Shown here one piece after another: positions 6,516-40,000 of a stretch of DNA of 64,000 nt. This DNA comes from Bispira polyomma. Its lineage: Eukaryota. Location: NCBI GenBank assembly GCA_965649765.1, contig OZ287755.1, forward strand, positions 23,188,001 to 23,252,000, given 5' to 3'. Under the pieces are notes generated by a model. It was not told the origin of the DNA. It made no database searches and saw nothing but the letters and a program-made list of their open reading frames with translations. Both the position numbers and the translations under genes were made by a program. The number at the start of each line of letters is the position of its first letter. Position 1 is the first letter of the stretch.

Positions 6516-6521
6516 CTGAAA

Positions 6522-9206: not shown

Positions 9207-9473
9207 ATAGGGATTCTAGAAATCTAATTGTTCATTACTACATATAGTTTCACTCACGTGTTTGTTATTGTAAGTGGAATCAATATTATTCAACCTTAAA
9301 CTTTCATTCAAAAATCTGTGAATGTTTCTACTTCTTTCAAAACTATTCACCTGATTAATACTAGGTGACTTAACTGATTTAAAACTGTTTATTAATGTTT
9401 TACTTTTCTTATTAGCTATTTTACTTTTATTACTTCCACTGTCTGCCCTACTACCTGGTAGTTGGTCAACGTC

Positions 9474-14474: not shown

Positions 14475-17400
14475 TGTAAAATAGTTTGATATTTGCTGAC
14501 AGGTGGAACTGTAGATATCACAGCCCATGAGGTTCTGTCTGAAGGACGGGTGAAGGAAATCTACCGTGCCAATGGTGGTCCTTGGGGTGGTACCAATGTG
14601 GACAAAGAATTTCTACAACTGCTGATGAACATTTTTGGAGCATGTTACATGGAAAGTTATCAAAGAGATTGTCCGCGACAGTTCTTAGACCTTATGTTAA
14701 AGTTTGAATCAGCCAAAAAAGCAGTTAATCCCGACAAGTCACGAAAAATTACCCTTCCTCTGACCTGGCATATGGCCAACAAGTTTCAGAATGTTACGGG
14801 GAAGTGTTTAGAACAAACGATCAAGGCGGCTTCAGCACTGGGTGTGTCATTTGTCAGTGGTTCACTGGCCATCAACCAGACACTGTGAAGAGGATGTTTG
14901 AGGTAGTCATACAACAGACTATTGAACATCTAGAGACCATCATTCAAGAAGCTGTCCTAGCCAGCTGTCAGTTCTTCCTTCTAGTGGGTGGTTTTGGGGA
15001 GTGTATATTCCTGCAGAAGGCAATAAAAGACAAGTTTGAACCAGGAGTGAAGGTTTTGGTACCTCTAGAGGCCCAGATGTCTGTCATTAAAGGAGCGGTC
15101 ATGTTTGGTCACTGTCCAACCAACATCAAGAGTCGCATAGCCAGGAGAACATATGGTGACAAGAATATAGTGCCCTTTGTTCCAGAAGTCCATGACCCTG
15201 ACTACAAGGTCCCTGGCCGGCCTAAGTGCAGGGACGTATTTGTTCCTTATGTACAAATTGGTGATGATGTAGAAACAGGCAGTGTAAAGTCTTTTAACAT
15301 ACATCCACACCATGCTTGTCAGAAGACAATGCTGACTGAGATTTATGTTGTGAACCGCAAGGTTTCTCATTATTTACCCGAGTACGTGGACAAGCCTGGG
15401 TTTGAGAAGGTTGGAGAGTTTTCTGTGACTATGCCGGACACCTCTAAAGGTCTAGATAGACAAGTCAAGTTTGAGGTGAAGTTTGGAGGGACAGAGATTC
15501 AGGTTAGGGCTACAGCTCACCAGTCAGGCAATGAGGCAGAAACCACTATTGACTTTCTTACTGGTTAAAGACATGTTGCTATTGTTATCATAATTACCTC
15601 AAATTGCCTTTCAACAAGCGATAGATAAATTACAAGAGACTGGATTTGAATTTGATTATTAAACTGATATTGTGAAAATTCACAATTGTAACATTTTTCA
15701 GGTAAAATTGCAATAAAATTGTATATTATTTCAAACCAAGTAAAAATCTATGAATTAGATACCATAACTGTAAACTTTCAAATACGTTGTGTATGAACTC
15801 TTTGGATGTATGTTAACAACTGGCCATATTGATGTATAATTAAACCACATAAATATACCTGATAAACCCCCCAGAGATTGTTTTACATTGTTGTGTGTAC
15901 TACTTTCTTTAATATTTTCTTTAGTTGTCGTAACAAAATTTTTGGTGATATATATGTATGCATATATGTATGAGTGGCAAAGTTGTGGCTAGAAGCAACA
16001 CTATAATTGGAATTCTCCCATATCAGAGAATGTTCTCTTCAGGAAATAGTCGATAAAGACTGGGAAAATTATACTTTAGCAAAACTGAATGGGTGATAAT
16101 ATGTGTGGTCCATTTCCAAGTGAATTAAGCAAATTGTTATGTAAACACCAGTTTAAACCAGTTACGGTCAATAAACAAGTGAGTGAAAATGCCTAGTTGT
16201 GATGTCCCCCTCATGAAGAGTGCCCACTCAATGCTAAAGGAGATGAGGGTGACATTGGTTTCGGGGACAACATGTTTTGTAAAGCATGTATGAAAGAACA
16301 GAGGGAGTATATAAAAGGTTTAAGGAGTGTCAGCAAGAGGTCAAGTAATACCGGGAACAACGAGGCAGTGTAAAATAAATGTGCTGGAAAACAGGGACCT
16401 AGAACAAACAGCAGTGCTGATGATGCAAGTGTTTCAATGGACAAGGTTCTGATGCAGCCTGTGAATGCTTATGTTGGGTTTTTATTAAACAGTAGTACCC
16501 TGGTTAATGTCAGACAGGCTACTTTGGAATTGTTTCAGTGAGGAACAGATTACTCAAGGATGATTTGTGGTCACACTGTGGCGCAGGAGTAATTGGAGAA
16601 AACAACTTCACGAACTACCAGGAAAGCAAACTTAGCTATTTTAATGCATTTTGACTTCTTAAAAGCATTTACAAAATAGTAACCTGTCTGCAATTATTGA
16701 AGAAAGGCAAGGTTACACCATAATTGTTGGGGGTGACTTCAATATAAGTTGAGATAAACCAGGTTATAATTTAGAAATGTTAAAGTCCTTCATGGAGAAA
16801 GAAAATGAACAGTGTAGAAAAGAAGAAAAGTAACATAAAATTTACTTTTAAGAGCAACGCAACCATGATTAATTCTGTTATGTATGATATTCGTGTATAT
16901 GTTTTACTTCATGATAGGGGCAATTTATAAGACCATTCTCCAGTATATATGTCATTCAGACAAATAGTTCAAATAAAATTAATTTTCAATGCTCCAATGG
17001 CTCCCATCTACCATTTTATAATGAAATCTAGTGTAATAATTCCAGTCAGATGGCAGATCATGTCAGCATAAGTCAAGTCCTTGTTAGATAGTTTATTGCA
17101 GAATGTATGCATCTCCACCAGCATTTTGTACTGTAATAACATTCAGTCTATTTATCCCAATCACATTGAAGATATTGAGGTATTTCACAGCAAGTGTTGT
17201 ACTTACTTTCCTAACAGATCTAGTGCTAAATATCATTACTATCTTCGTAAATAGATATTCGTAAATTAGAGAAAAGTATTCTGGCGAATAATATGGCAGA
17301 ACGTCTTATGGTAATTATACAGAGTTCTGGTCAAAGGTGAAGCACATTAATAGTACTGGTGTTCCCTTGCCTACTACAGTTGATAATGTCATTGGTAGTC

Positions 17401-17988
17401 ATAACATCAGTCAAGTTAATGCAAACATGTTAAGTACAAGTTCTTGTACAAATCTGTACCCTATAGTGTGTGTGGTAGCCCGGCAGGGGCTAGTAAGGTC
17501 AGTGCTAGGTAGGGACCTTCTTAAGAACTTTTCTGGTCGGCATGACCCCACTTCTGATTGGTAGTAATTAAGCTAATTTACACAGCTTTCCCGCCAAATA
17601 GCCAAAGGGGTTCACTTACTAAAGTCAACAAGGCAACAGCCATTTTAGAAAAAAGAAATATTTTTACACTTGTTTTAATTTTCTTGTTTATATTATGTTA
17701 CTGTGTATTATTTGAAACTTTTGAAAACTCAAGAGGAATCTTCACCCACTTGTGGATCCTACTGGAGTGTTGTGGATGACGTTATGCTTTGATATATGTG
17801 CTTATTGCTCTGACTGATTGTGGGAGCAAATTGTTAAGGGACGTACTCACATACTTCTACTATCACCTTTATTCTAGTCATTTTACAGTTTATTTCTACA
17901 TTCAAGTCTTGCAGTCGCACATATCAAAGCACGGACTGTGTATTTTCTATTTCAGTGACATTATATCTTTATGAACTAATAAACAGAG

Positions 17989-19166
17989 ATGGCACCTCGT
18001 AAACAATTTAACTGTACGGCATGCAACACAAAGCATACCAAGCCCATAAATGATCGGTGTCCGTGGCAGGATGTAGACAGTGAAACCGAGGATAAAGACA
18101 CTGATAGTACTATGTCAGCTACCGAAGTTAACTTGAGAATATTGCATGAACTTAAAGAATTAGGTACCAGAATGACTAAGGTCGAGAAACAGGTGGAAAC
18201 TGGAGGACAGTGTGTTAATTCCCCCAGACAGGAGGTACCAGTGAATAACATTCAGGCAGTTAATAACACACAACTACCACAGCAGCAGGCAGCCGGGTAC
18301 CCACAGGCGTTTGGCAGGCAGCAGGCTCTGCAGCAACCCACACAGGTGTTTAGCAAGCAGCAGGTGGTACAGCCATCTCAGGAAGCACAGGCATTTGGCA
18401 GGCAGCAGGCTCTGCAGCACCCTCAGGAAGCACAGGCATTTGGCAGGCAGCAGAACCAATGGCTGACTGACGCAGATGACCTGGTAGTCCCCTCCGTTGA
18501 GACGTTATGAAACGCAGACCAGTTGCAAGAGGCAGTTGACTGCAGGCTGAAGGGCCTACAAAGAATCAATGAGACAGGTAATGTTAAGTCTCAAAGGGGG
18601 GGGGCACAGAAACAGTCTGGGTCAAACAGCATGTACCATGGCCCCAAAATTTTATACTCGGTGGTCAAAGTAAAACTCGTATGTTGTATGACAATCTTTC
18701 AATGGCCCAGTGGGTCTCAGGTTTTAGCACAATCATAAAAGAAGGAAGTAACTTGGATGTAAAAAATGCAATGCTTGAGTATCTGTCAGAAATGATGGAA
18801 GATTGCCATGACTTTAGTTGGTTGGCTGCAAAAGGTAGTCACGCAGTCCTCTTATGTAAGATTGAGGAAGGGAAAATATCCTGGCTAGAAACTCACAAAA
18901 CTGATAGGGTCAGACGAGCTCATGCTCAAAAGAATGTTTCTTCTCAAAATTCAGCCCACTCTCAGGGGAGTGAAAAGGGTAATAGCAATGGTATGCCCTG
19001 TAAATACTATCAAAAAGGCACTTGCCCTCATAAAGGTGACCACAAAAGTAGTGGCAAACTGTATTTACATGTATGTGCAACCTGTACTGCTGTAGGTAAA
19101 AATCTCCCTCACCCAGAGAAAGACTGTAGGAGAAAGGCTAGTACCAATGTAGCAAAAAACGACTAA
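17989..19166 (+). pseudogene. E2 gag-like ORF1 (stop at 18508-18510, frameshift at G-run ~18600)
   Basis: N-terminal CxxC..H....C as in E3 gag; IEEGKISW; C-terminal CKYYQKGTC..H..HVCATC..H..C. Confidence 0.82.
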
Positions 19167-19177
19167 GGCACTGCAAA

Positions 19178-21769
19178 ATGGCAGTGCACTCATTTAGCCC
19201 AGCTAAACAATGTAACAACTCCAGACTGAATCTAGATAGCAAAACAGGTTGGACAAAGTATTTTGGTGCTAGAAATGTTTTTAATTCATGCAGTGGCAAT
19301 GGCAAAAGTGAAAATTGGAGAGCTGACTGGGCTAAATTTACAAAACTTATGCTCAAGTGGTAAGCCAAGGTAAGGGCAGCCTACGACAGGCTAACAGTCA
19401 TGTCAATAATAACAAGACATATCAAATCAAAAACAGCAAAACCAATTTTCACGTTAAAGCCATAGCAAAGGTTAGTGAAGTCAAGCATATGAATCAAACT
19501 AACGCCTGTCAGTTCAATGGCAAAAGTCACAGTAGAAGGAAAGTAGGTGTAAATAAGCCATTCAGGTGTCAGCCACCTACTAACCAAAATAATGGAGTTA
19601 TGGTTCAAAATCTTCACCCACTTGTGTCGCTTGATGAATCAAAAACCCCTGAAAGTGTTAAATGTCATAGTCCACACAATGACCAGTTCAAGATAGTCAG
19701 TAAGGTAAACAAAAATACTTGTGAAGTACAAGAGGATAAGTACAACCTCCAACTCCAGGTAAAAAATAAACACAAAGAAATAGTGGCAACGGCTAAAGAT
19801 CAGGATATTTTTAAAAAATGGAATAGCCAAACTCGAAGTAAGTTTGGTTTTATTCCCCTTAGTGATCTTAAAAGCCCCAGTACTGATAAACCGACTACAC
19901 ACAATCTCTCGGCTATTCAGTTGCACACTGAAGTTAAATCTAGCAACGAGTTCAACTTTATGGACAAGCAAATGGTAGTTCACTCACAATTGAATTATGA
20001 GTGAAGGAAAAAGTTACTAAACAGATACTGGAATACCCAGCTACCTTACCTTATCCGATACAGATTTCCATTAGATTTTGACAGGAAGTGTGAATTAAAA
20101 CATAAGGAGCAAAACCACCATTCAGGGTGTGAATATACAGGCGATGTTACAGCATACCTACAAGAAGAAAGTGATCATGGTGCAATCATAGACCCGTTTA
20201 ACGGACCCCCAATAGAAGGGTTACATATTTCGCCTTTCATGACTAGGGAAAAGCCGGGCGCCCCTCACAGAATGGTTATTATTGACCTTAGCTTTCCAAA
20301 AGGACAGTCGGTAACACTGCAATACATCCAAATCTGTACTTAGGCACAGAATTTCTACTAACACTCCCTACAATTGATGACATAACGAATGAAATAATTA
20401 AATTGGGCAAAAAAGCACTTATATATAAGCTGGACATAAGTCGCGCTTTCTGTCATGTGAAGTTATATCCAGCAGAGTATGATTTACAAGGGCTTAAGTT
20501 GGACAAATACTACGTCGACATGTGCCTGCTGTTTGGTTACAGACATGGAAGTGCGATGTTTCAGCGTTTAAGTGACGCAATGCGTTATATTATGCGTGTC
20601 AAAGGCTATGACGTCACAAATTATACAGATGACGTCATTGGTTACGGCAATGCCCCAGACGTCCATGACACCTATGAGACTCTATACAATCTGGTTCAGG
20701 ACCTAGGTTTTACCATTAGTACTAAAAAATTGGTAGCTCCCAGTACCAAAGTCGTTTGCCTAGGAGTCTTAATTGACACAGACAATTTTAAGGTAGAAGT
20801 GCCGCCAGAAAAATTGCCCAAACACTTCAGTTATGTAGCAGTTGGGTAGGCAAAAAGCAATGTTCTAAGTGAGAATTGCAGTCACTGCTAGGCTCGCTCC
20901 TCTGTATATCAAAATATCTTCGAATAGCACAAATCTTCCTCAATAGGATGTTGGACATCCTGCCCAGTGCCTCTGACGCCAAACATATAAGCTTACAGCT
21001 TCCTTTCTACCATGTGAAGCGTGAAAGGGAGTTGCGCGCCTTTCCGCCGGATGCTACGGGGTGGGTTAATACTCAATCTGGTTGCTTGCTGATCAACCAG
21101 CTGTTAACCCCCCTACCCTTACGACCTTGCTATGCCCATGGACTTTATGATTGGATCACTGATTCTTCTGTTGCGCTTTAGGAGATGCCTGGCCTCAATA
21201 AAGCGCGTTAAAAATGCATTATTATTATTATTATTTCTTTCAAGATCTAAATTGGTTTAATAAATTTACCCAAAAATTCAATGGTAAGGCATTTTTTAAC
21301 ATAGCCCTGTCACTGACCAAATCGAGCTAGATGCTTGCCTCATAGGTCTAGGAGGAAGATGCAATAATGTGGTATACACAAAAATCCTACCTCTCAATTA
21401 CCTAGAAATGAATATAGCTCATCTTGAAATGTTAAACATCCTGGTAGCTCTCCACCTTTGGTGAAATACATGGCAAGGCAAAAAACTAGTCGTACACTGC
21501 GACAATCAGGCTTGGTAACAATCTTAAACTCAGGCAAAACCAAGGACTTGACACTCGCAGCAATAGCTCGCAATATTTTTATGGAAGTAGCAAAGGCAAA
21601 TATTAACCTAAGGCCTGTACATATATTAGGTAAATTGAATGCCACAGCTGACTTGTTGTCAAGGTGGCACAAAGTCCCTGAACCAGACATGAAATTACAA
21701 CAATTAATACCAGAACCTCAATGGGTGGACGTTTCTGATGAGATATTAGCAATTGACTGTAGTATTTAA
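19178..21769 (+). pseudogene. E2 pol (RT/RNase H), many stops/frameshifts, interrupted by a retroposon insert
   Basis: KLDISRAF, FGYRHGS, YTDD, VCLGV, SLLGSLL and HILGKLNATADLLSR are spread across several frames. The start is approximate. Confidence 0.82.
21009..21233 (+). mobile_element. Short 5'-truncated non-LTR retroposon fragment inserted in E2 pol
   Basis: 5-bp TSD tttct (21004-21008, 21234-21238), AATAAA, (TTA)n tail. Removing it restores PFFQDLNWF. A related copy lies at ~60541-60750 (-). Confidence 0.82.
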
Positions 21770-21779
21770 TCTATTTCAG

Positions 21780-22787
21780 ATGTATCTCCCCTGGTGTTAC
21801 AATTGGCTGATCAAGCAGCCCACACGGCACGTCTGGCCTTCAGATCTGCAACCCAGCAGGCTTATCACAGCATGTTTAGGGTCTTCCTGGCCTTCACCAT
21901 ATTTGCAAATGTTAACATTAACCAACTTTCTCCCATAGTATTACTTTCCTTCTTGCAGGTTCTGATTTCAAGTAAGGTTTCACAACCCTCCATTGCCAAT
22001 TACCTAGCCGCTATTAAAGCTAAACTCAGTTTATATGGAATTAGTGTGTCTGCATTTACAGACCCTCGGGTGAAATATTTGCAAAAAGCACTGTCACTGC
22101 AAAAACCGTTTAAGGCAAAAATTAACAAAGTCATTGACATTCCACTGTTAACCCAGATAGTGCAAATATGTGACACAATGTATATGGGACAAATCTTCAA
22201 GGCAGCCTGTTTACTGGGCTTCTTTTCTTTCCTCAGAATATCAAACTTAGTTCCCCACACTCTGAGCTCCTTTAACCCTTTTAGAACAATTGGCCAGGGC
22301 AGATGTTCTATTTGCTCCCCCCGGCCTTCACATAATACTCAAGTGGTCCATTCAGGATAGGAACTCTATAAAAATTTATCAAAGTCCCTCAGATTTTTAA
22401 TTCCCCTTTATGCCCAGTCACGGCTACTAAAAATGCTTTATCTCTCTCCCTTGGACACAGGAATTCCCCTCTGTTACAGTTTAAAACTCCAAAAGGTTGG
22501 GTTCCCCTGACCGACTCAAAATTAAGGTAAACCTTAAGCAAATCCTCTCAAGGCTCAGCCTCTCAGACTCCCCTATAACCTTCCATGATTTCAGGTGCTC
22601 AGGTGCCACTCTGGCCTTCAATAATCATGTTCTTCTCCAAGATATCCAAAGCCATGGCACTTGGACCTCAGATTGTGTTTGGAAATATATTACAAAAGAT
22701 CATGAAGCTTCGGACCAAGTGGCCATGGCTTTCCAAACCTACTCTCTTCCCCTACACTCTAATTGGGGTTTGGTGCTATCTTTTTAA
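21780..22787 (+). pseudogene. E2 tyrosine recombinase, frameshifted
   Basis: FLRISNL, HDFRCSGA and HGTWTSDCVWKY in ORFs 21794-22360 and 22497-22787. Confidence 0.85.
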
Positions 22788-23431
22788 TTATTCATATACT
22801 CAAAATACTATATTCATGTTATTCCAGACTAAGGTCACCTCTTTTCAAAACTTAAACTCGAAATTAATCTAAACCTTTAAGGTTATCCTAACTTAAATCA
22901 CCATCTTAATTTAAGATGGCCTCAAACTTATCATCTAGTACCTTATGCTAAGATTACCTCAAACTAAAATCTTTCACTTTAGGGTAACCTTAATATTTCA
23001 TCCTAACTTAACAGTTTAAGGTTGACCTTTCGACCACCTTAAACTTTGGTGATCTTAGTTTGTAAATAAATAAAGTAGAATAACCATTAGAATAATAATT
23101 TCCCCAATGGCTATTTTCACTGTCTTACCTACAATCCAAGGTCACCTTAGGGCACTGTGTGTGGTAGCCCGGGAGGGGCTAGTAAGGTCAGTGCTAGGTA
23201 GGGACCTTCTTAAGAGCTTTTCTGGTCGGCATGACCCCACTTCTGATTGGTAGTAATTAACCTAATTTACACAGCTTTCCCGTCAAATAGCCAAAGGGGT
23301 TCACTTACTAAACTAAAGTCAACAAGGCAACAAGCCATGTTAGAAAAAAGAAATATTTTTACACTTCCCACCCTCATCCCCTACTTACACCTGTAGTTCG
23401 ATTATAACTTTGTCCAGGAGCAAATTGCAGA

Positions 23432-23578
23432 AGGTGGGGCCCCTGTTCTCTCACTTTAGGCCCTTATGCGCAGGGGAGGGCAAGGGTTCTTGGGGTGGGG
23501 CTTTGACCAGTCAGCAGCATAGCTCGACTGCAGTCCTGCACTCCGTCTTTCCCTTGGGGGCCCTCAGGGCTCCCACCT
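23432..23578 (+). ncRNA. Putative rod-like hairpin RNA in the A2-B2 spacer of E2
   Basis: GC-rich island with nested stems aggtggggcccctg/cagggctcccacct, ggccctt/gggggcc, ggggtg/cactcc and cagtc/gactg, with GU pairs on the sense strand. Confidence 0.5.
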
Positions 23579-26387
23579 ACTAGTCTCCAACACAATTCTG
23601 GGTAACCTGGCCTTTAACAGGGTTTCTTCCAACATTTCCCAGCTACAGGAGAGGATATAACCCTTGGAAAATGTATGTTATATAAAAATGTTGTCCTAAA
23701 TTGCATATTAGAAATTAATATTAAATATGTTGTTACAAGCAAAAACATTATTAATTAACAATGGTGTAATGTAAAACAAACATATGTATATACATGTCTT
23801 AACTATGAGTGTGTAGTTTCAGATCACGCGGATCAAGTGATCAAGAGCCATGACCTGCTGCGACCAGCAAACCAGATCCTGGTCGTACTGCATCCGAGTC
23901 AGCTCAAAAATACCTTAATGTACAATTGTATTCGATTTCACTCGATTTGCAACCTCTGTGGTATGTAACAAGGGCTTGTAATATGCAAGCACGTGAGGCC
24001 TAGTGAGTTAATGGTGCATCTCTACAGGAGTTTTTACGGGACAGTAATTTAAGATGTGCTTTTAGTTTATTTTTTAGTCTATTAGCTAGAACAAGGTTGC
24101 TTTTATTTCTTTTCCTTGTTATCTTTGCTTATCATTTTACACTTTATTTTACTTTACTCTTGTTATGTGCTGTCTTTTTAATTATTCATATACTCAAAAT
24201 ACTATATTCATGTTATTCCAGACTAAGGTCACCTCTTTTCTAAACTTAAACTCAAAATTAATCTAAACCTTTAAGGTTACCCTAATTTAAATCACCATCT
24301 TAATTTAAGATGGCCTCAAACTTATCATCTAGTACCTTATGCTAAGATTACCTCAAACTAAAATCTTTCACTTTAGGGTAACTTTAATATTTTATCCTAA
24401 CTTAATAGTTTAAGGTTGACCTTTCGACCACCTTAAACTTTGGTGACCTTAGTCTGCCAGTTTGTAAATAAAGTAAATTAACCATTTGAATAAACTAATT
24501 TCCCCAATGGCTATTTTTACTGTCTTACCTGCAATCCAAGATCACCTTAGGGCACTGGTAATGACATAAAAGTTTGTTGGAAACAATTAATCAGTCTGTT
24601 TAATCACAATGTTGCTCTAACCGGTATATGTTCACACATTCATTTAATGCAAGTCCAGTAATTGAATCAGTAAAACTTTTAATAAGTCAGAAAGAAGATG
24701 GACTGATTGATATATATTCGGAAAACATAATTCATGCCTGTCATATACTTTACGTGTTCTTGAGTTAGTTGTTTAATTCTATGCTAACACATTTATATTC
24801 TCCTGAGAATTTCACAACCTTAGTTATTATACCAATACCTAAAAAAAGAATAAGTCGATCAATGATTCAGGTCATTACAGTGATCTTGCTTTAAGTAGTT
24901 TTATGTTAGATTCTTGAAGTGTTAATTATAAAGGTTAATGTAAGTGTTTTCAAATCTTGTGAACTCTAAAAATAATAATGTAATCATCAAAAGAGTAGAT
25001 AGTGTAGTGCACCATCATTGGTCCTCCCAAAACAAACGTGTGTGATATTTCTGAAGGCATCTAACATTTATATTATCACTTAATAGCATATTAAATGTAC
25101 TCACGCATTCTCATGTAAATGTTACAAATAAACTGTTTCAAAGTTTTTGCATGCCATTATATGGTAGTTTTTTATAGGATTTTGAAACTAGTATTATGAT
25201 AAAGTTCTACACAGAATAAAGGAGGGAAAAACGAAGATTATTTAATGTATGACATGAAACTGTTCCTATTTATATACAAATGTATAAAAATGTGAATGAG
25301 TTTATTCATGGTGTAAACTGTAGTGAGAACAAATGTGTAGGCCTAGCATTAAAGCTAGTCTACTAAGGTACTGGTGTAAGCTGTAGTGAGAACAAATGTG
25401 TAGGCCTAGCATTAAAGCTAGTCTCACTAAGGCACTGGTGCTACAAATTGTAAAAATACCAATCATAGAGCACGTGGGTTAGAAGTGCAGTCGAGAAATG
25501 ATATGTAAAGTTCCATTATATTTTAATATGCTAGTAATAAATACATACAAGTATATGAGTGTAATACTGCTGAAGATAATACTATAGTTGGTAATATTAA
25601 AGACATGTTAAATATACATGATGTATAAACCACACCCTATTTTTGACAGCAGGGATTAATGAGTTGTTATCATACCTCTGTATTCATTAATGCTCTATGC
25701 AAGTGTCTTCCATGTGATTTTGTTTTGGGTTTTTTTTTCCATTTTTTGGTAAATATAAAATTTAATTTCATGTTAAAATGTAAACACTGTTATTGAACTC
25801 TGTGTACAAATTACATAAAATAATAAATCTATCCAGGGGCTAAAACATGGTCACACTTGGAATGTGTGAAGGGGACTACCTCAATACAGAAGGTCTCTGA
25901 TACAGATTTGGGGTACTGCATGTCTTGTCATAATGATATGAGAGTGCAGTATATGTAGTCATAATGAACAGTAGTCAAAAATGGTTGATAATATAATTTG
26001 ATTAGTGCCAGACAGAGACCTGTAAGAAGTTTGATAAGTTTGGAAACTAGATGCTGTTTGGGATGTATTTATTTCTATCTACTGCCTCTATGTACAACTA
26101 TACAATTAAAATTTTAGTTAAAATTTTAAAAATGCCAATATGGCTACATAATAAATGACAAAACAAGAGTGTGTAAATGCCAATATGGCTACATAATAAA
26201 TTACAAAACAAGAGTATGTTATGCGAAATGTAAAGGGACAAAAAGGTCCCGAAAGAACAACATAAAAGTTGAACACAAGAATACCCAGGATGACTGAGAT
26301 TGTTAAAATTGTTCATAAAAGCTGAAGGAAATTGTATATATGAGCTTGTGTGTATATGAATCTTAAGTTCCTCACTATCTCTGACCA

Positions 26388-26549
26388 GACTCAACCTCCA
26401 AGGTCAGAACCCCGGTCCTGCGGCACCTAATCGCCTAGCAGTGAAGGTTCCCAGCTGCAGAGCTTTAATCCCCGGTAGCCCACACCGAGGGGTAGTTGCG
26501 AGCTGAGAACCAGCACCACACGGACCGAGGTTCGAACCCAGGTGGAGTC
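26388..26549 (-). ncRNA. Putative conserved structured RNA element in the A2-B2 spacer of E3
   Basis: Homolog of 4731-4888; closing stem gactc/gagtc; GCGA tetraloop. Confidence 0.6.
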
Positions 26550-26987
26550 ACATGGGCAAGTGAGATTATAATTTTTGGGTGGAGGGTTGGGAAAAAGACG
26601 TGTTGCTTACTTAACTTGCAACTTAATAATGCCTTTCTATGATAAAAGGGTGGCAAGGAGTTTACTCTGAAGGAAGGTGATTGGTTGCCTGGTTTAAATG
26701 ACCTAAAGTCTGATTGGGATAGCTAGGTAAACACTTCTTAAGGAGGGTTTTACAGTAAAGTATTCAATTTTTGCTACTGACTTGCCATGCTATACTAGCA
26801 GTGACATCAACAGTAGTCAAAAATGGTTGATAATATAATTTGATTAGTGCCAGACAGAGACCTGTAAGAAGTTTGATAAGTTTGGAAACTAGATGCTGTT
26901 TGGGATGTATTTATTTCTATCTACTGCCTCTATGTACAACTATACAATTAAAATTTTAGTTAAAATTTTAAAAATGCCAAAGCCAAA

Positions 26988-27967
26988 TTAGAAAGTAGAG
27001 GAGACAATGGAGGAAAAAGTGGAGGGGATGATAGAGGCTGCATGAGAGGTGGATTGTAAATATGACTAGACAGCATCGGATTTCCAGCACCCATGTTTTT
27101 GTATATCTTGAAGTTTAACATTAGAATTAAAGGCTAGAGAGGCTCCAGAGCGACGGAAGCAGTGAAATGAATGACCTATGTGTGGAATGTCAAGGTGAGT
27201 GAGGATGTTCTTGAGTGTAAGCCTAAGCTTGGTGTCTGATAAGCAGTTTCCTCTATCACATGGGTTGGCCAGTAATGGGGCCATGGAGTGTAAAGGGTAT
27301 TTGTTAAATAAAGCTGTGGCAGCTCTGACAGGACATAGCCAGGGGTTTGATAAGGAAGGTAGTTGAATGATGTCTGGATTTGTCCTACTTTGGTTAGTTT
27401 TACTCCATTTAAGGATAAGGTGAATACCTGGTGGGGCGAATACTATGTCTGCCCTTGTGAGGTGTCTTGTAGGGTCAAAAAGTGAACCGGAAGTAGTAGT
27501 AAGATTGGAAATTCTGAGGAACCCAAAGAAGGCGAAAAGAAAAGCTGTCCTGTATAGCTCAGGGAAATGAAGTAAATCACAAGCTTGTGAAATTTTTTCA
27601 AGTTGTAGTAAGTCAAACACTCCCTTTATTCTGGGGGTGTATTTAGAGGTGAGTTCTAAGGACCTAGTGTACAAGGTCAGTCTGGGGTCATAAAGACCTG
27701 TGTGTAGTATATTCAATAGTTTGGCATTGTGTCTTAGAGCTGATATGTAATTTGCAATCACTTTGTGGGATTTCCCTGTTTGATTCAGGAACTCTAGAAA
27801 TGCCAAAATGGTGTTGAAACTGAAGGTATGATGTAGATCATAATATACAGTGAAGGCTAAAAAGAGTCTGAATTGGCTGTTGTATTGTCTCTGAGTTCTA
27901 GGTCTGTGGCTCTGTCGTAATCTTGTGAGGGCACCTTGGATCAGTGAATTTGCTGAGTCAGAAGTGC
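26988..27967 (-). pseudogene. E3 tyrosine recombinase with a premature stop (W->TAG at 27066-27068) before the catalytic Tyr
   Basis: FLRISNL, LKWSK, HCFRR, HGCW, then DAV*SYL. The frame continues to TAA at 26988 and is open upstream to the acceptor at 27968. Confidence 0.87.
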
Positions 27968-27973
27968 CTGAAA

Positions 27974-30553
27974 TTATAAATAAGTATCTAATGTAAAAAA
28001 GTTAAGAGGAATGTTATGCATGGTGAAGCTGTGAGTGATGGTTGCCCTTATGTGTTCACCCCCCGTGTCGAGTTCATACCATCGCGAAAGTGCGTCAGCA
28101 ATGATATTTTCCTTACCTGGGATGTGACTAATGACAAGGTCAATGTTTTCTGCTGCACAAATTTGCCAAATATTCCTTAAACATAGTCCTAAGTAAGTGT
28201 CCTTGGTTTTTGATGACTGCACTACAGCCACCACGGCCATGTTATCTGACTGTACCTTAACTTTTTTGTTTTTCCATCTGTGACCCCATAGTTTGAGAGC
28301 AATTAAAATGCTCACCATTTCAAAATGTACGATTGATAAAGTATGAGACATGAAGAGAGGAAGGGGAGTTTTAAACACGTTTCTGTTCCATATACCTCCA
28401 ATGCCAGATAAACAAGCGTCAACTTGTAGTAGGGCGTCGTGTGGCTTGTTTATGTAGTTATAAGTAGTAGTACCGTTAAACTGTAAAAGAAATGTTACAA
28501 ACCAGGCGAGGTCTTGGTGGAAATCCATATTCAAGATGACTGTGTTACTGCTAGTGGATTGTCGTAGTAATGCTAGCATCCGATTCATGAATATACGAGA
28601 GGGTTTAATACACCGGTGAATGTAAAGGAGTTTTCCTAATAGCGACTGGTATTTTTGTTTATGTACTTTATTTAGTTATTTAAACCCAAGACAGGTATCA
28701 TAAATGGAAATCAATTTATCCTCATCAATACTGAGAGTTTCGTTGGTGATATCAATGGTAATGCCCATACAAGTGACACGTTTACTGGGGGGGACTAGCT
28801 TTTTTGCGTTTATGGGGAGGCCTAGATCTGTGAGAATTTCTTGCAAAGTATTGTAAGCTAAGGTAGCCCTATCTTCAGATTCTATGAGTATGAAGTCATC
28901 GATGTAGTTGTATACTGTGAAGCCTTTAAGTTTCATAATATAAGTCACGCAATCTGAGGCCATCATAAAGACTGCTGTGCCATGAGTTAAGCCAAAAGTC
29001 AAGGTTAAATCTATATAATAATTATTTTTCCAAAAATATCCGAGTTTAAGGCAATCATAGGGGTCAATTCTGATATTTCGAAATGCGTGGGAAATGTCCA
29101 CTTTTGCTAAGGTGGCCTTAGGTCCAATAGTCAAGATTTGAGAAGTTATTTGATCAATAGATGGAAGTTTTAGGTTGAAGTCTATGTGGTCATACTTTGT
29201 TTTTACAGTACAATCATTCACGGATTGGCCTGTAGGGTGAGATAAATCTAAGACTAACCTACGTTGGTCAACGTCCTTGGGAACTGTCAATAAGGGAGAA
29301 CAGTGTAAATCTGGATGTAAGTTATCGTTAATGGGGCCAATTATGGTACCTCTGTCGACCTCAGTGATGAAATATTTGTCTATTGCCTGAGGGAAAGCTT
29401 TGGCTGAGTAATGATTTTTGACATTTGTGACGTGTAGTCGGTCCCTGTCGTATAAGGAAATGGGGAATCCGAATTCTACATACTGTAACATGATTTTGTC
29501 TGGGTAGTCAACCAAATACTCTTTCCATTTAGCTACGTTGAGGTTGCTCTTAAGTGGTATACGTGCTGATTTATAGTTGGGGACCTTAGTGGTTTTAATG
29601 ATGTTGGCAACTTCTACCAGTTTGCCATACGAGTCAATGTTGACCTCTTGTCTAACAGGACCCATAAAGGTAAAGTTGTTATATCTGTGTGGAGTGTAAC
29701 CAAAAGGTTTGTGTGTGTTGGCTAAAGTGTCCCCCTGTGTGTTGTTGTTCTTGGGAAGTACATGTGAACATTGTTGTGAAACTGCCTGAGTCATAACGAC
29801 CTCATGATCTGTACAGTGTGTGTGTGTGACAGTAGTATGAGGGTTGTGAGTGTGCAAGTTGTGTGATGGCATTACAAGTTCTACAGTAGTTGTTTTTGCT
29901 TGTGTGAGTGTCTGTTCATCACGTCTACATAAGCTGTCAATGATGTCATTGTAATACAAACTGCTACCTAATTTAGTACGTGTGTGTGAGAGTTGTTTGT
30001 CTAATCTCGGTTTTGTGAGTTTCTTTACTTGGGGGAAGTTCCTGCCTAATTCTGAGATGTGCATAGAGCAAGAGTAAGTTATGGGCCAAATGTGTTCTAA
30101 TGACCAATCAGATAGTTGGAATGTCCAGCTATCTTGTACAAAGTTGCACACATAAACGCCCGACAGAGATGTATCTTGGCGACATACTAGGTAACAAAGG
30201 TTTAACGTATTACAGCCATGTTGACTGTTACTGAGATATATATCACAAAGTTTAGAGTCACAATGTAAACTGTTATCAGCTGTATATGTGATAACATTGT
30301 CTATAGTGCCTGGGTAGGCGGTTAAACTTGCATTAGTATTTTTAACTTGATCGTTGTCAACACTTGAAATAATAGAATGATTACAGTCTGATGAAGTCTG
30401 TGACCTGTTAATCTTACTGTCTACAGAGAATTGTTCGATATTACTGTTCTCAACACTAACGCTTAAACTGGATATAAAATTAGGGTTCTCATAATCGTCT
30501 ACCTTATAAATTTGCTTAGAAGTACTATTAATCTCATCATTCTTCAGGCTCAT
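27974..30553 (-). pseudogene. E3 pol (RT/RNase H) with one in-frame stop at 28676-28678
   Basis: ORFs 28676-30553 and 27974-28588 share a frame; KVDISHAF, YIDD, VDAC, SDN, HIPGKENIIADALSR. Confidence 0.88.
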
Positions 30554-30616
30554 ACAATAAACATGAGGTACATTGAAGTCACAACTGGTGGTGGTGGCTG
30601 TAGGCAGTTGGTGGTC

Positions 30617-31954
30617 CTATTGTGTGTTTGATGTAGGGGTTGGACGCCCATGCAGTTTAAAACATTTTGTCTCCGGATGAGGGTTGGATTTTTTACTAAC
30701 CCGGAAACAGTTGGCACAAATGTGCTTAAAAAGAACGTTATTCCCCTCGTGGTCTTTCTGATGTTGGCATTGGCCTTTCTGAAAGTGCCTGCACGGGATT
30801 TCTTGTTTAGTCGACGCAGAGAGAGTGGTGTTTGTAGACGTGTTGTTGGAGACGAGAGCTTGGGAGTACGAGAGCCTGTTTAGGGTCCACTTCGTTTCAT
30901 TGAGCCAGCTGAGGCGACCTTCCTCGATGTCGTACATGTTGCACGCGTAAGCTCCACGAGCTATCTGCCAGGATATGTTTGAGGCGTCTCTGAGAGTATC
31001 TGCCAACTGAGTGAGCATTGCTCTGGAGATAGATTGATTCTGGACCTCTAAAATATTTTGAATTTGTCCGGCAGCGAATTGTGGGATGGTAAGGTCGTCG
31101 AAAGAAACACGTTTTTTATTTATACCTGAGAAGCAAGCCTCATTGGGCCAGTGTTTCATCGGATCAGAGACACACACATCTGAGACATTGTAACGACCAG
31201 ACTTTTTCTTGGTGGCAAGCTTACCTTGTAAGCCTTCGTCCGCAGCCCAGGCCTCATAACGTGCTAAGCGGAGAGATACTTCATTTTGTATTAAGGAGGA
31301 CTGCTTGAGGACATCTGGTGTCGGTAAGATGGCGTCCTGTAGTGCTCGCTGTGTGTTGTCAGTGTTAGTAACTCTCTGTGGTTGCATCTGACCTGCTATG
31401 TGAGATTGAGCGTGAGGCTGAGGTAGAGGGTGAGATGTGTAGGTGAGCGATGAAAGATCCCTGTGTGCTTCATAGCCTGGTAAACTAAGTGATGCTGGGT
31501 GTACTGGTGTCGTGTGAGGTGGGTCTTGAAGAATTTGCATGTTGTTTCCTGGGTTGTGAAGCCGAGGAGTGACTGTAGGACGAGCTGACGGGGTCGTTAC
31601 TGACGGCCTTACCATGGGTAACTGAAGAACCGGGGTCTCGGATTGCTTAGCTTTAAGGTCAGAAATGTCCTCTTGTAACTTTGACACAGTAGTAAGTAAT
31701 GTTTGCATCATGGCTTGCTGCCTGCTATGTATGTCACGGTAAAAATTTTCGGAACTTACTTTATCAGAGCAGTTACTGATGGAGTCGCTGTCAAGGTTAT
31801 TTTCTGCTTCCAAATCTTGGTCTGGTAAGGGTTCTTCTTCAGAAGATACAATGACTCTGTTGCATCTAGTCCCGACTGGGCGAGTATGCGAAATGTCACA
31901 TCTCGAGCACATAGCTACATTCACGGCGGGTTGTCTTTTTTTACCTCTGCCCAT
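30617..31954 (-). CDS. E3 gag-like ORF1 (intact, 445 aa)
   Basis: N-terminal CSRC..H...C; IEEGRLSW; C-terminal CRHFQKGQC.H..H..HICANC..H..C; first ORF after A1. Confidence 0.85.
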   Translation of the reverse strand: MGRGKKRQPAVNVAMCSRCDISHTRPVGTRCNRVIVSSEEEPLPDQDLEAENNLDSDSISNCSDKVSSENFYRDIHSRQQAMMQTLLTTVSKLQEDISDLKAKQSETPVLQLPMVRPSVTTPSARPTVTPRLHNPGNNMQILQDPPHTTPVHPASLSLPGYEAHRDLSSLTYTSHPLPQPHAQSHIAGQMQPQRVTNTDNTQRALQDAILPTPDVLKQSSLIQNEVSLRLARYEAWAADEGLQGKLATKKKSGRYNVSDVCVSDPMKHWPNEACFSGINKKRVSFDDLTIPQFAAGQIQNILEVQNQSISRAMLTQLADTLRDASNISWQIARGAYACNMYDIEEGRLSWLNETKWTLNRLSYSQALVSNNTSTNTTLSASTKQEIPCRHFQKGQCQHQKDHEGNNVLFKHICANCFRVSKKSNPHPETKCFKLHGRPTPTSNTQ

Positions 31955-32839
31955 TTTGACACTTAATCCAGGAGTAAAAGCACCACGGGTGAAACTATAA
32001 TATGTCTATAATGGTTATGCACTAAAAACACGTAAAAACTAGATGTAAAACGAGTGGGAACATACAATTTAACAAAGTTTTCCTCCCACAAAAATTTAAA
32101 ATCCAATATGGCCGCTTCTAGGCTCACAAAAAGACGTGTTGCTTACTTAACTTGCAACTTAATAATGCCTTTCTATGATAAAAGGGCGGCAAGGAGTTTA
32201 CTCTGAAGGAAGGTGATTGGTTGCCTGGTTTAAATGACCTAAAGTCTGATTGGGATAGCTAGGTAAACACTTCTTAAGGAGGGTTTTACAGTAAAGTATT
32301 CAATTTTTGCTACTGACTTGCCATGCTATACTAGCAGTGACATCAACATGCCCATTAGAAGTAATTTAACATTTACAATGTACCTATATAAAGAGTCCAC
32401 TGCAAACAGTCTATATATGCGACATTCTTCAAATAGAATACGATAAAATGCATTACGCATTATCAGAAAACAAGCTATACTGAAGAAGATTTTTGTAAAA
32501 TTGGCAGACATATCAAATAAATCTTTACCTCAAATGGCTGCCTGAATGAAAACAAAGTGAAACCGGTGTAGTCTATATTTAGAACAAACATGAAGTGGAA
32601 ATATACTGGAAGATCAATGATGTCATCAAGCATGGCTGCATATATCGACTGTGTACATAAACTGGTGCCTACAGACGTGGTATGCTTGTGTCGGTGTCTA
32701 TGCCTCCATTTGTGTTTAGGGATCGTTACTTACATGTAGCAGACAACATAAACTACTGAGGAATTGAGAAAAGGAATAACTTGAATGACTTGAAGGTAGA
32801 ATTTAATATATACTTATCAATAACCTTTGAAAATTTGTG

Positions 32840-33344
32840 GGTGTATTCACATTTTACACTAGTGACTAATGTAGGTGTATTCATATTTTACACCAATGAC
32901 TAATGTAGGTGTATTCACATTTTAAACCAGTGACTAATGTAGGTGTATTCACATTTTACACTAGTGACTAATGTAGGTGTATTCATATTTTACACCAATG
33001 ACTAATGTAAGTGTATTCACATTTTACACCAGTGACTAATGTAGGTGTATTCACATTTTACACCCGTGACTAATGTACTTTTATTCACATTTTACACCAG
33101 TGACTAATGTAGGTGTATTCACATTTTACACCAGTGACTAATGTAGGTGTATTCACATTTTACACCAGTGACTAATGTAGGTGTATTCACATTTTACACC
33201 AGTGACTAATGTAGGTGTATTCACATTTTACACCGGTGACTAATGTAGGTGTATTCACATTTTACACAAGTAACTAATGTAAGTGTATTTACACTTACAC
33301 TAGTGACTAATGTAGGTCTTTTCACATTTTACACTAGTGACTAA
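32840..33344. repeat. 34-bp minisatellite, ~15 copies
   Basis: Unit ggtgtattcacattttacaccagtgactaatgta, with no spacers. Confidence 0.92.
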
Positions 33345-34089: not shown

Positions 34090-37000
34090 ATGAGCACAAA
34101 GGGAGGTGCTACCCCTGAGGACCAGTACCTACTGGTGGCAGCCATAGACTTTGGTACCACCTTTACGGGCTATGCCTACTCCTTCAAGAGTGAGCCAGAC
34201 CTGGTGCGGATGAACAAGAACTGGGGAGCAGCACATGGCTTCCAGTGTCACAAGACCCCCACCACTGTACTCACAGGGCCAGGGGGACGCTTCCAGGCTT
34301 TTGGATTTGAGGCTGAAACAAGGTATACATGGCACTTTGGTGGATAGATACTGGATTTGAGGCTGAAACAAGGTATACATGGCACATTGGTGGATAGATA
34401 CTGGTAGAGTAGTGCATCCAATACACAAAATTAGCCAAATATTCATTACAATCAACACAATTTCACTCTGCTTTCCCTTTAAAGTTCCCTATTTTGTTTT
34501 TTTACCCACCTCTCCTACTGTAGAGATTGGTAAATTACATGCGAATACACCCAGGATATCCACGTCATTGGTAAATGAATATATACATGGAAGATGTCAT
34601 GTTCGTGTTAAGGCTTGAAGTATACAACTGGGCCTGTATTCACTAAAGTTATTATACTTAGAATAAGAATTTTTGATATTCACTAAAGTTCTTATACTTA
34701 GATTTTTTGCTTATTCTTAGAAAAATTTCTAAGAATGAGCTTTAATTCTAAGAATGGTCAAGACCTTACTTAAGTTAAGAAAAAGACATAGGGCCATATG
34801 CACTAAAGTTGTTATACTTAGAATAATTCTTATACTTTGAATAAGAATCATTCTTATACTTAGAATAAGAATCATTCTTATACTTAGAATAAGAATTATT
34901 CTTATACTTAGAAAACTTTCTATTCTAAGAATTTTTTGTTCTTATACTTATATAATAAGAATTTTCTTAGCTAAGAGGTGTCCAAAAGAATGTCATGTCT
35001 TTTTCTTAACTTAAGTAAGGTCTTAACCTTTCTTAGAATGAAAGCTTATTCTTAGAAAATCTTCTAAGAATAAGCAAAATTCTAAGTATAAGAATTTTTC
35101 TAAGAATAATTCTAAGTATAAGAATTATCTAAGAATAATTCTAAGAATTATTCTAAGTATAAGAACTTTATTGAATACCAAAAATTCTTATTCAAAGTAT
35201 GAAAACTTTAGTGAATGCAGCTCCTGACATTCTTATATATTGCTTTACACAATTCTTAGTCAAGAAAATTCTTGTTGTAAGAATAAGTATAACAAAATTC
35301 TTAAACTAGAAAATTTTCTAAGTATAAGAATGATTCTTATTCTAAGTATAAGAATGATTTTTATTCTAAGTATAAGAATGATTCCAAGTATAAGAACTTT
35401 AGTGAATACGGGCCCAGATGTAGTTATTTGTATTTTTGTGTACTTTAGGTATACCGATATCAGCACAGAGGAAGAAAACACAGACAACTACCAACTCTTT
35501 AGACACTTCAAAATGATGCTCTATACACAAAAGGTATGCTTTGTTACAGACTTTGTTACAAACAACGACCAACACTTCAGACACTTCAAAATGATGCTCT
35601 ATACACAAAAGGTATGCTTTGTTACAGACTTTGTTACAAACAACGACCAACACTTCAGACACTTCAAAATGATGCTCTATACACAAAAGGTATGTTTTAT
35701 TACAGACTTTGTTACAAACAACGACCAACACTTTAGACACTTCAAAATAATGCTCTATACACAATAGGTATGCTTTGTTACAGACTTTGTTACAAACAAC
35801 GACCAACATTTCAGACACTTCAAAATGATGCTCTATACACAAAAGGTATGCTTTGTTACAGACTTTGTTACAAACAACGACCAACTCTTTAGACACTTCA
35901 AAATGATGCTCTATACACAAAAGGTATGCTTTGTTACAGACTTTGTTACAAACAACGACCAACACTTCAGACACTTCAAAATGATGCTCTATACACAATA
36001 GGTATGCTTTGTTACAGACTTTGTTACAAACAACAACCAACTCTTTAGACACTTCAAAATGATGCTCCATATACATAAAAGGTATGCTTTGTGATAGTCT
36101 ACACTTCAATGTTACAATGTTATAAAAGCATCTATTAAGGCAAAGCAGACATTTGAACCTGCTGTTGTTCTGCCCAACATGTTGTGTACATATGTGAAAC
36201 AGAATTTTTCAAATGCGAAAACCTTGTAGCTGTGGATAATATCAAGAATGAAAGATTTCAACTGTTAAATATAATTTGAAGTATGATATGACTGCTAAAG
36301 AAATTTTGTCTGAATTAAAACATATGTTTAACATAAATTGTGCTTGTGACCACAATTTGCCCAAGTACAGTGAGCCAGCATCAGTACTGTCATTACCCTA
36401 TAATTGGCTGCACATGGTGCAATTTTCAGTCAGTAACCATTGCGCAATTTTTTTTCTGAGACTGAAAAGTTTAGTCTCATGTGACGGCCATTGTAACAGT
36501 ATCAAAGAAAATAAGGTTTAAACTGTCTAATTGCACTGTAAATTCCTTTTAAAGTAATCAATACAGTAGTTAACATCTTGCAGACATAAAATTGCATCGT
36601 GTCCAACAGATTGTCTCAGACAAATTGTCACCGACGGAAAGTGGCCTTGTGTGTGGCCTACTTAACTGAAGAGAGAGACTTTACGATGATCATTTATCAA
36701 CGTCCCTAAGGTTCCTGGCACGAGAGATGAGGCTCAGTGACAGAGGACTGCCATTTTAAGTGGTTATCTAAGCCACTTTGTGTATGCCTGTACCTGCTTG
36801 CCTCAAGGCTGGAATCAACCCAGACCCACTAGGCCGCAGCTTATCTATAACATATATGAGTGCTACACAGACCTGGTCATCTGTTTACAGCACATTACCA
36901 GGGAGACAGAAATTATGTCAGTAAGTGGTCAGTCTGCCAAGGCCCTGGACATCTTTAGTATGGCTCTACAGTACATCCGAGACCATCTTATAAACTCCAT

Positions 37001-40000
37001 CAGGAATACTATGTATATGTGAGTATGGGCCTATTTGATACAAAACATAGGCGGTAAGACAGTGAATTGCTGGGGTACCTTCTCTAAGTGACTTACTTAT
37101 GTGTCAGTGTGGACCTATCTGATACAAACATGGGTGGTAACAATGGATAGTGTACTAGTCTGGTACCTTTCTGAGTCACCTTCTGACCTTTGTATTTAAA
37201 AAAGGGTAGCTATTTAGTATACAATAGTTTACAATAAAATGAAATATTACTCGCTGTCTTCTTGTTGTGATACCATACAGCTTTATAGTACAGATCATTT
37301 AAAATCCTATTAGAAGTTTTGATATGTATCTTGGTAAAACATTAGTAATATTTCTTAAACTTTTAAAATATGAAAAACAGTTGTATGATGATTGGTCCCA
37401 TCTTTAGTGTACTTTTTAGGGAAAATGAGCGAAAAGTGATACTGGTTATTCAGCCATCTAATTGTACTTTACAGTGATAGCCCAGCCAAACTTAATGAAC
37501 TGATCAAGTGGGTGCTGACTGTACCAGCAATCTGGGATGATCAAGCCAAGCAGTTTATGAGAGAGGCTGCTTGTATGGTATCGTATAAACACTGAGTGTA
37601 GATAAAAGGGGTTGTTTGTATGGTATAGTATTAACACTGAGTGTAGATAAAAGGGGTTGTTTGTATGGTATAGTATTAACACTGAGTGTAGATGAGAGAG
37701 GCTGCTTGTATGGTACAGTATTAACACTGACTGTAGATGAGAGAGGCTGTTTGTATAGTACAGTATTAACACTGAGTGTAGATAAGAGAGGATGTTTGTA
37801 TGGTATAGCATAAACACTGAGTGTAGATGAGAGAGGCTGTTTGTATGGTACACTGTTAACACTGAGTGTAAATGAGAGAGGCTGCTTGTATGGTACAGCA
37901 TTAACACTAAGTGTAGATGAGAGGGGTTGTTTGTATTGTACAGTATTAACACTGAGTGTAAATGAGAGAGGCTGTTTGTATTGTACAATGTTAACACTGA
38001 GTGTAGATGAAAGAGGCTGTTTGTATGGTACTGTGTTAACACTGAGTGTAGATGAGAGGGGCTGTTTGTATGGTACTGTGTTAACATTGACTGTAGATGA
38101 AAGAGGCTGTTTGTACGGTACTGTGTTAACACTGAGTGTAGATGAGAGGGGTTGTTTGTATGGTACTGTGTTAACAATAATGTGCATTGGACTGTATACA
38201 TTATTACGTAGTACACAATTTAAAGATAGTCTACAGAAGAGAGAGGCTTTATGTATGTCCAGCTTTCCATCCCACAATTTTGTCCAAACTGTATCTCACT
38301 AACTATAAATGAGGCGAATGTTATAATTGTCACAACTCTAGATCTTATTGGGTAGTTGTGCAACATTTGATTTGTTTTGCCTCATTTGGGCAAGGTTGCC
38401 CTGGCAGGCTTGCGATAAACAAAAGCAGTAATTTTTGGTGGTGCATCCTTCGGTATCTCGGTAAATATAAATTGTAGCAACCTCATATGTGACATAGTTG
38501 TAGACCTTATGGGGTAGTTGTGTAGTCTCAAATTTAATTTATTGACTGCCTTATTGACTCGAATATTGTACATGTCTTTGTTCACAACCACTTATTTCTT
38601 GTTAATGACTTTGTCCTGGTCATTTGAATATCAGTAACTGGGTTATGTGGGCTTTCTTACAGTTATTCTAATTATATTTTTAGGCATGTGTCCAGATACA
38701 GATGCAGAGACATATATATATATATATGTATACATCTTGATATCACTATAGGCTGGGCTAATTAAAGAACAAGACTCCAAGATGTTAATGATTGCCTTGG
38801 AACCTGAAGCTGCTTCAATGTACTGTAGAAAACTGGACATTGCCCACTTTGCTTATGGGCCTGGAGAAGGGGGAAGCTTGAGCTTTACTAGTGGAACCAA
38901 ATACATGGTCATTGATGCAGGAGGTAAGAAGGAGTCTGTGGTTTATGCTAAAACCAGTAACATGCCAGAATTATTCCTTATGAGTACCCTTTTCTACAAT
39001 ACATACTAATTTAGTACTCAATACTAATATCCAGTGAATAGTGTAAATATGTCTGTATCACAGTATAGATTACCCAAGAATAATTTTCAAAGAATGGATA
39101 TATTTTAGGAAAAATATCCAGTAAATTCTGTAAACAACTCTATATTATAGTATTATTAACCAAGATTAATATGACAGAACAGATTAGATTGATATGATGA
39201 AAAGAGGACATAGACATTCCTGTGTGTATAAGATAGGCTATATCCATTTCTTTGTTTTGTACATATCTAAACTTCTCATTCAAATAATAATATCACCTCT
39301 TCACTTCTCATTTCAGGCGGCACAGTAGACATCACTGTACATGAAATTCTGCCTAATGAGCATGTCAAAGAACTGCACACTGCTAATGGAGGGGCCTGGG
39401 GAGGTACACAGGTAGACAAGAACTTCATCAGTCTGCTGAGGAAGATACTGACTCCACACTTCGTGGATGTCTACATGACACAGTGCCCTGACATGTGGCT
39501 AGCTCTGATGACCACATTTGAGAGGGTGAAGTCTTCAGTGAGTGTTGATGCTAATAGTACGCTCCTCATCCCTTTGTCCTGGTCTATAGGAAGTAAGCAC
39601 CAGGAAGTCATGGGCACCAACATTGAGATGGTTATCAAAGGTGCAACCAAAATGGGGGTCAAGTTTTCTAATGGGGCCCTCATACTGCAAAAAACAGCCA
39701 TTGATACCATATTCCTACCAGTTGTGGAGGATATCATTCAGCACATCCACAGCTTGATGGAACTGCCAAATGTAAATCTGATTGACTATTTGCTGCTGGT
39801 TGGTGGCTTTGGGGAATGCGCATACTTACAGCACAAGATACAAGAGCATTTTGGCAGCAAGACATGTTTACTGGTCCCGTGTGAAGCTCAGATGGCTGTG
39901 AAGAAGGGAGCTGTGTTGTTTGGACACCAACCTACCATTATACAGAGCAGAATATCAAGGTACACCTATGGTGTTAAAATACGTTCAGTATTTATCAGAG

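Follow-up and report, generated by a model that had tools for sequence, protein, structure and literature searches.

A probable structured RNA, apparently undescribed so far, as an accessory module of Ngaro-type tyrosine recombinase retrotransposons in Bispira polyomma

Ngaro elements, of the order DIRS, are retrotransposons with a tyrosine recombinase (YR) which, in the available excerpts of the papers describing them, are defined by split direct repeats, a reverse transcriptase and RNase H (RT/RH) followed by the YR, and no methyltransferase (PMC4157794, PMC8547959, PMC9210276). The elements analyzed here are like them in their A1-gag-RT/RH-YR-B1A2-B2 layout, in that no methyltransferase was found and in leaving solo AB remnants, but differ by a feature that those excerpts describe neither in the spacer nor elsewhere: a conserved, predicted structured RNA, found here in three positions and three subtypes. 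The SIRE of Trypanosoma VIPER, a split-repeat YR element, corresponds to that element's A2-to-B2 unit, which is also what the solo A-spacer-B copies here amount to, but the internal part proper to SIRE is about 30 bp and the accessible part of the source reports no structured RNA (PMC6681497). The CTE, RTE and SERV-K MER11 elements are similar to the motif in being extended stem-loops of similar size, in sense orientation, patchily distributed and gained by recombination, according to the sections available (PMC1363727, PMC11379458), whereas the motif has no Rfam match, lies behind the first poly(A) signal in most families and is at most a candidate for export. Retroviral psi/DIS and the Ty1 PAL/pseudoknot region are structured cis-RNAs on genomic RNA, as the motif, with its candidate palindrome, is predicted to be; the motif differs in lying away from the 5' end, in being dispensable in sister families and in having no detected similarity. 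Retroviral psi lies behind the splice donor, and comparable to this is one family here with its motif inside a predicted intron. Literature searches and YR-element papers, as far as the available portions go, yielded no RNA of the motif's kind, which is apparently an accessory RNA module so far undescribed, within a known element class.

The window analyzed is a stretch of 64,000 nt of contig OZ287755.1, and the genome was searched as 1.04 Gb in 75 contigs. Self-BLAST of the window revealed three elements with split direct repeats (A1-ORFs-B1-A2-B2, also present in relatives): E1 on the minus strand (4052-11059), E2 on the plus strand (17467-24557) and E3 on the minus strand (25964-32348). The same comparison places the E3 repeats, all minus, at 32128-32348 (A1), 26592-26812 (A2, 99.5% identical to A1), 26806-26980 (B1, containing AATAAA) and 25964-26138 (B2, 99.4% to B1), and the E1 repeats, also minus, at 10852-11059 (A1), 5322-5531 (B1), 5114-5321 (A2) and 4052-4261 (B2). 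In both E1 and E3 a gag-like frame is followed by RT/RNase H and then by a tyrosine recombinase. On the minus strand, E3 carries a gag-like frame with a Cys/His-rich C-terminus (30617-32005; predicted splice donor near 31224), RT and RNase H frames separated by a stop (27974-30616; PF00078 and PF13456, matched in E1 as well) and a YR frame (27066-28001; predicted splice acceptor at 27968-27969), which has no Pfam match of its own and is 43% identical to the E1 YR frame, itself a match to PF00589/PF02899. Pfam found no methyltransferase domain among 17 window frames, and RNase H abuts the YR in both elements. Judged by repeat architecture and domains, E1 and E3 fit Ngaro-type YR retrotransposons as defined above.

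Elsewhere on the plus strand of the window lie a frame with a protein kinase domain (55322-56098; PF00069, E 5.8e-32) and three long frames without Pfam match (39271-40401, 49637-50827 and 14729-15568), the DNA around which shows mutual short matches of 70-75%, suggesting another repeat family; further features are tandem arrays whose units measure 68, 78 and 45 bp, and a region of nested palindromes (32836-33344, 35480-36100, 37557-38176 and 34623-35422). A YR search of the genome gave 12,994 first-look candidates, pointing to a genome very rich in YR elements. Many copies have an A-ORFs-B form that ends exactly at the B1 end (L183, L185, L188, L189, L214, L217, L219-L221; L142, L144, L145, L177-L180), and solo A-spacer-B copies are frequent among the elements examined. 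The A-spacer-B unit is tandemly repeated in L121, L125 and L139 (period ~1460 bp) and in L295-L296 (~950 bp), periods being given in the order of the loci; such tandem units, which could be non-autonomous elements, would have a B-A junction in their interior. Identical or near-identical copies 46-265 kb apart or near contig starts represent segmental duplications (L290-L292; L130-L134, L136), and in L142 a 214-bp sequence occurs twice (oriented 3719-3931 and 7795-8008; 97.7%), flanking a 5'-truncated element.

The E3 copy of the motif (26388-26549, minus), of subtype I, is divided into outer stem, three-way junction, inner stem and apical domain, and scores 191.9 bits with R1, a model built partly from the E3 copy's own family. 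The preliminary description of this DNA had paired it with a segment of the E1 A2-B2 spacer (4731-4888, minus), in the same orientation and compartment. This pairing stands: 26394-26547 matches 4733-4884 in the same orientation at 86.4% over 154 nt (E 8.7e-46), the E1 copy is recovered by self-BLAST, folding and R1, and both copies lie between A2 and B2, with gaps to A2 of 42 bp (E3) and 225 bp (E1). The limits then drawn for the E3 copy coincide exactly with the closing helix of the predicted fold, and the window self-BLAST lists no further match between the two spacers besides the motif. Folding of the element-sense (minus) strand gives z -6.0 for E3 and -4.5 for E1, with 0/200 shuffles as good, and the motif is the most stable 160-nt window on that strand in E3, E1 and L144; in E3 a long rod is predicted on either strand (z -5.7 plus, -6.0 minus).

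Immediately 3' of A2, the E3 spacer opens with a C-rich tract (26577-26591, minus), and similar tracts open the spacer in other families seen. This tract forms the A2 3' boundary in every family seen (E1, E2, L163-L171, L211, L319), 65-nt spacers included, and may be the essential part of the A2-B2 spacer. The spacer of E2 contains another conserved sequence (23400-23680, plus), distinct from the motif, GC-rich, foldable and branched; it is also seen in L112-L141 and has 79 genome candidates, of which 40 were scored, mostly behind a YR and between B repeats. It has short words in common with the motif, yet gives no R1 match, and homology between the two RNAs was rejected on that ground.

A 28-nt core of the motif has 208 genome matches at up to two mismatches, and a reversed control has none. 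Linkage was assessed on 100 of the 208 core matches (99 as loci, plus the E1 copy) and a few further matches, a sample that leans to close copies and comprises 111 loci, 105 of them non-redundant. A YR gene lies within 1.5 kb upstream at 63/105 loci and downstream at 9/105; at the other 33/105 there is none, and 32 of these have one or both flanks matching YR-linked copies, while the remaining locus (L049) is a member of a clade whose L333 and L335 carry a YR. The preliminary description had proposed asking what fraction of matches lie downstream of a YR frame; with flanks and clade membership counted as well, 105/105 copies are parts or remnants of YR elements. Its view that two independent insertions were unlikely is borne out: the copies share a common origin as integral components of YR elements. 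Clustering by flanks yields about 14 families. Viral contigs contained 0 matches to the core pattern, metagenome contigs searched with a YR alignment gave no locus, and none of 26 metagenome junction-pattern matches had an E below 0.44 under R1. A SINE-like repeat is inserted in L162, L164, L215 and, within the motif, L339, where it split the motif and duplicated ~11 bp of it.

In the predicted fold, an outer stem opens into a three-way junction that carries a short side hairpin; beyond it come an inner stem and, last, an apical domain. On the minus strand of E3, the 5' strand of junction helix P3 (26514-26519) pairs with 26438-26443, with tandem G.U pairs unchanged in three subtypes, and the side hairpin of the junction (26422-26435) is the most conserved part across subtypes I-III. 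The apical domain (26459-26497, minus) combines a hairpin with a mostly unpaired AGCUC strand (26460-26464) and is ambiguous in its fold; this strand could pair with the apical loop (26477-26481), in a helix that is invariant and so has no covariation support. Among 22 family representatives under the subtype I model, 96.5% of cells are paired and 13/54 pairs show two-sided change. The covariation score of these representatives was equaled by 0/500 shuffles, which ignore relatedness, and slid controls paired at 30-51%; 28 sequences of the three subtypes gave 36/47 pairs, in a fitting that leans to the model. Wobble pairs are polarized on the sense strand, with 136 G.U cells against 17 A.C cells, and this G.U excess suggests that it is the element's RNA that folds rather than antisense single-stranded cDNA, a molecule described for DIRS-1 in the accessible part of PMC7192593. 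The same polarity, 136 to 17, led us to reject a folded minus-strand cDNA resembling attC. Rfam gave no match on the motif at E<=10 (window 25900-27000) and none at E<=1 in 11 loci. The motif is very probably a selected, sense-strand structured RNA built into YR elements.

Two further subtypes were found with R1 and subtype-specific patterns, a procedure that may miss more distant ones. Subtype II is divergent and was detected by R1 near YR genes; its junction pattern has 73 genome matches (control 0). Subtype III has 40 genome matches, and all 17/17 matches scored, in 16 loci, reach E<=3e-4; the three subtypes together account for >300 genomic matches. Across subtypes there is next to no variation in the tandem G.U helix end or the side hairpin while adjacent pairs flip from U-A to A-U, a result that anchoring and fitting favor; a plain MAFFT alignment of the three subtypes together, given to RNAalifold, yielded the side hairpin as the only part of the model. 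The AGC(U/G)C strand, whose predicted exposure varies among subtypes, has possible partners in the apical loop (I, II), in an upstream strand (II, III) and in itself in trans (II, III), its palindrome being 6 nt in 26/27 subtype II and 9/16 subtype III sequences (one more with G.U pairs) and only 4 nt in subtype I. An apical pseudoknot is a doubtful candidate: its helix is invariant in subtype I, the subtype II counterpart shows one-sided change, subtype III offers no loop partner, and the strand involved could instead form a nested hairpin. On the antisense strand of L155, near 7084 (oriented), there is an isolated fragment like the junction and side hairpin, possibly a remnant of a further subtype.

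The motif lies 41 to 259 bp from A2 across copies. The preliminary description had proposed that position relative to the repeats is what matters, but this does not hold up: one distant family has the motif in the gap that separates RNase H from the YR, and another has it within repeat B. In the former, which we call the RH-YR family (L142-L145, L163, L174, L177-L180; RT about 33% and YR about 32% identical to E1), it follows the RNase H stop and precedes the start of the YR; the A2-B2 spacer of ~110 bp is motif-free, as are the solo copies. That this family has no split repeats was considered and rejected, since L163 possesses the complete set and other families also include A-ORFs-B forms. 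In another clade (L155, L333, L335) the motif lies inside repeat B, behind AATAAA and ~170-190 bp before the element end. As these placements show, the motif is a relocatable module that has changed compartment.

Nor is the motif universal, several complete families having no copy anywhere. Among 40 hand-picked YR loci across identity tiers, R1 matched in 20; of 24 YR-anchored loci retaining B1 and B2, 19 have the motif, one a damaged copy and four none. R1 run without filters on 10 long loci, 7 of them with a full repeat set, found nothing (best E 0.62). Motif-free L318 and L319 have repeats 99.5-100% identical, uninterrupted protein matches and a ~65-nt spacer. On these sequences, the motif is an accessory rather than an essential module, absent from some young complete families.

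Among 14 subtype I elements (91 pairs, with intact family mates substituted for E1 and L155), motif identity ranges from 77 to 97% and bears no relation to YR identity (rho 0.16, p 0.14): it still averages 86% in pairs whose YR identity is <40%, whereas below 70% YR identity the flanks resemble each other no more than shuffled sequence does (baseline 0.51). Recombinases of families that share the motif are as low as 25-45% identical. In a quick YR tree of 44 rows, for which the careful search was unfinished and a long-branch warning applies, subtype I is shared by the clades of E1 and E3 and by two distant lineages; subtype II is nested in the E3 clade and III in the E1 clade, and the E2 clade has another RNA. 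This pattern suggests that the motif has been exchanged between families, extreme conservation being the alternative.

Predicted RNA-processing signals hint at a role. A gag splice donor (G|GTAAG) is present in 15/20 elements, with an altered donor in a 16th, and in E1, E3 and the RH-YR family the start of the YR shows an AG acceptor; in L313 (5720-7225) gag, to residue 260, runs directly into the YR, as expected of retrotransposed spliced RNA. The B repeat of L313 resembles that of a motif-free family. AATAAA occurs in 15/15 B repeats checked, upstream of the motif where the motif lies in B, and also internally in elements (3 in E3, 6 in E1), so that poly(A) use is presumed. Assuming a promoter in A, a transcript end at the AATAAA of B and splicing of gag to the YR, all three positions (the A2-B2 spacer, the RH-YR gap in the predicted intron, and B behind AATAAA) would give one motif per unspliced read-through RNA, and the spliced gag-YR message ending at B1 would carry no motif from any of them. 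The unspliced read-through RNA would also be the sole RNA with the B1A2 junction required for rebuilding the ends. If the predicted signals are used, the motif would be restricted to full-length RNA, which is the logic of a packaging signal.

The motif may then mark full-length genomic RNA for Gag and reverse transcriptase, through packaging or dimerisation. Two RNAs could pair through its AGC(U/G)C strand, which may be exposed and is self-complementary in subtypes II and III; Ty1 dimerisation offers a precedent for palindromes together with a structured Gag site in the part of the source available (PMC6844567). Swapping of the module between co-packaged RNAs would produce the flat motif identity seen across distant families, and the motif would aid replication rather than enable it. 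Against packaging count the complete motif-free families, which argue against a strict need, the different RNA of the E2 clade, and a short A2-to-B2 transcript and solo A-spacer-B remnants, which would carry the motif too; against dimerisation count the subtype I palindrome of 4 nt only and the competing intramolecular partners of the strand. A psi-like packaging or dimerisation signal on the predicted full-length genomic RNA is the best of the readings considered, yet a tentative one that falls somewhat short of probable.

Other functions must be weighed against it. A role in the nuclear export or the stability of RNA that keeps its intron, in the manner of the retroviral CTE or IAP RTE, would suit conserved splice signals that imply unspliced RNA in need of export, as well as the size, rod shape, sense polarity and intron or 3' location of the motif. 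In the excerpts available, IAP export elements are confined to a subgroup of IAPs (PMC1363727) and export elements can be acquired by recombination (PMC11379458). Export is still unlikely, since in the spacer and in-B families the unspliced gag-pol message ending at B1 would lack the motif, and no Rfam match was found. We regard as quite unlikely a start site of reverse transcription, recruiting or priming in the manner of epsilon or msr, from which two template switches via A and B would close the circle whatever the internal start. An internal start would be compatible with all three positions, junction bases are invariant beyond pairing needs, and the primer of DIRS-1 is not known according to the consulted part of PMC7192593; young complete families without the motif are hard to square with an obligatory primer, and broken motif copies are interrupted, by inspection only, at different places. 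The A2 promoter could also, with A2 nearly identical to A1 and B2 to B1, make a small non-coding A2-spacer-B2 RNA, from solo remnants too, that acts in trans, for instance as a decoy that diverts proteins of dsRNA sensing or silencing. A-spacer-B units commonly occur as solos, and the long imperfect stem with a central junction is presumably reminiscent of adenovirus VA RNA. This is very unlikely given that the RH-YR family has its motif outside the A2-B2 unit and its solos are motif-free, and that a Pol III B box is unconserved (sense and antisense, 31 and 32 of 85 subtype I, 0/27 subtype II, 0 and 1 of 16 subtype III sequences).

The strong sequence conservation around the three-way junction, and the patchy ribozyme modules that the available sections of the literature describe in other retroelements, would be in keeping with a self-cleaving ribozyme of unknown class. 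We hold this highly improbable: a cut, whichever of the three positions it fell in, would break the template in two between the repeats, and Rfam gave no match. The core patterns that we take to typify hammerhead, hairpin and twister ribozymes are absent from the motif on both strands. Flat identity across distant families, three positions and dispensability would equally be expected of a selfish passenger RNA spreading between Ngaro families by recombination with little or no gain to the element, and in one clade the motif is flanked by direct repeats, of 7 and 14 nt in the two exceptions noted below. These short repeats are themselves members of an array within the B repeat of the clade, 0/105 sampled copies lie outside YR elements and compensatory change is maintained in about 14 flank-defined families, making a mere passenger as improbable as a ribozyme. 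A tRNA-derived SINE or some other ordinary repeat, inserted independently each time, is almost certainly not the explanation. A B-box-like word lies near one end in E1 and E3, but the B box is unconserved, ARAGORN found no tRNA, the motif never occurs outside YR elements in the sample, and both tail and target duplication are absent at E1, E3 and 10/12 other representatives, the two exceptions being those with flanking direct repeats. A tRNA/T-loop and Pol III reading was likewise rejected, since the T-loop-like words face each other in a single helix and the B box is unconserved.

The widest proposal, that an undescribed RNA family selects, pairs or primes full-length RNA as a module mobile between deeply diverged YR lineages (25-35% YR identity) and working from three positions, is doubtful as a whole, though conceivable. 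The choice of template RNA and the start of reverse transcription in YR retrotransposons are an open question on which the motif bears, and its three subtypes, three positions and motif-free sisters form a natural set for studying packaging, dimerisation, export, priming and cleavage. If the proposal is true, lateral exchange of a cis-RNA between families that share a third of their protein residues would be an unusual mode of modular evolution for the order, and the motif would provide a first handle on how split-repeat elements begin replication.
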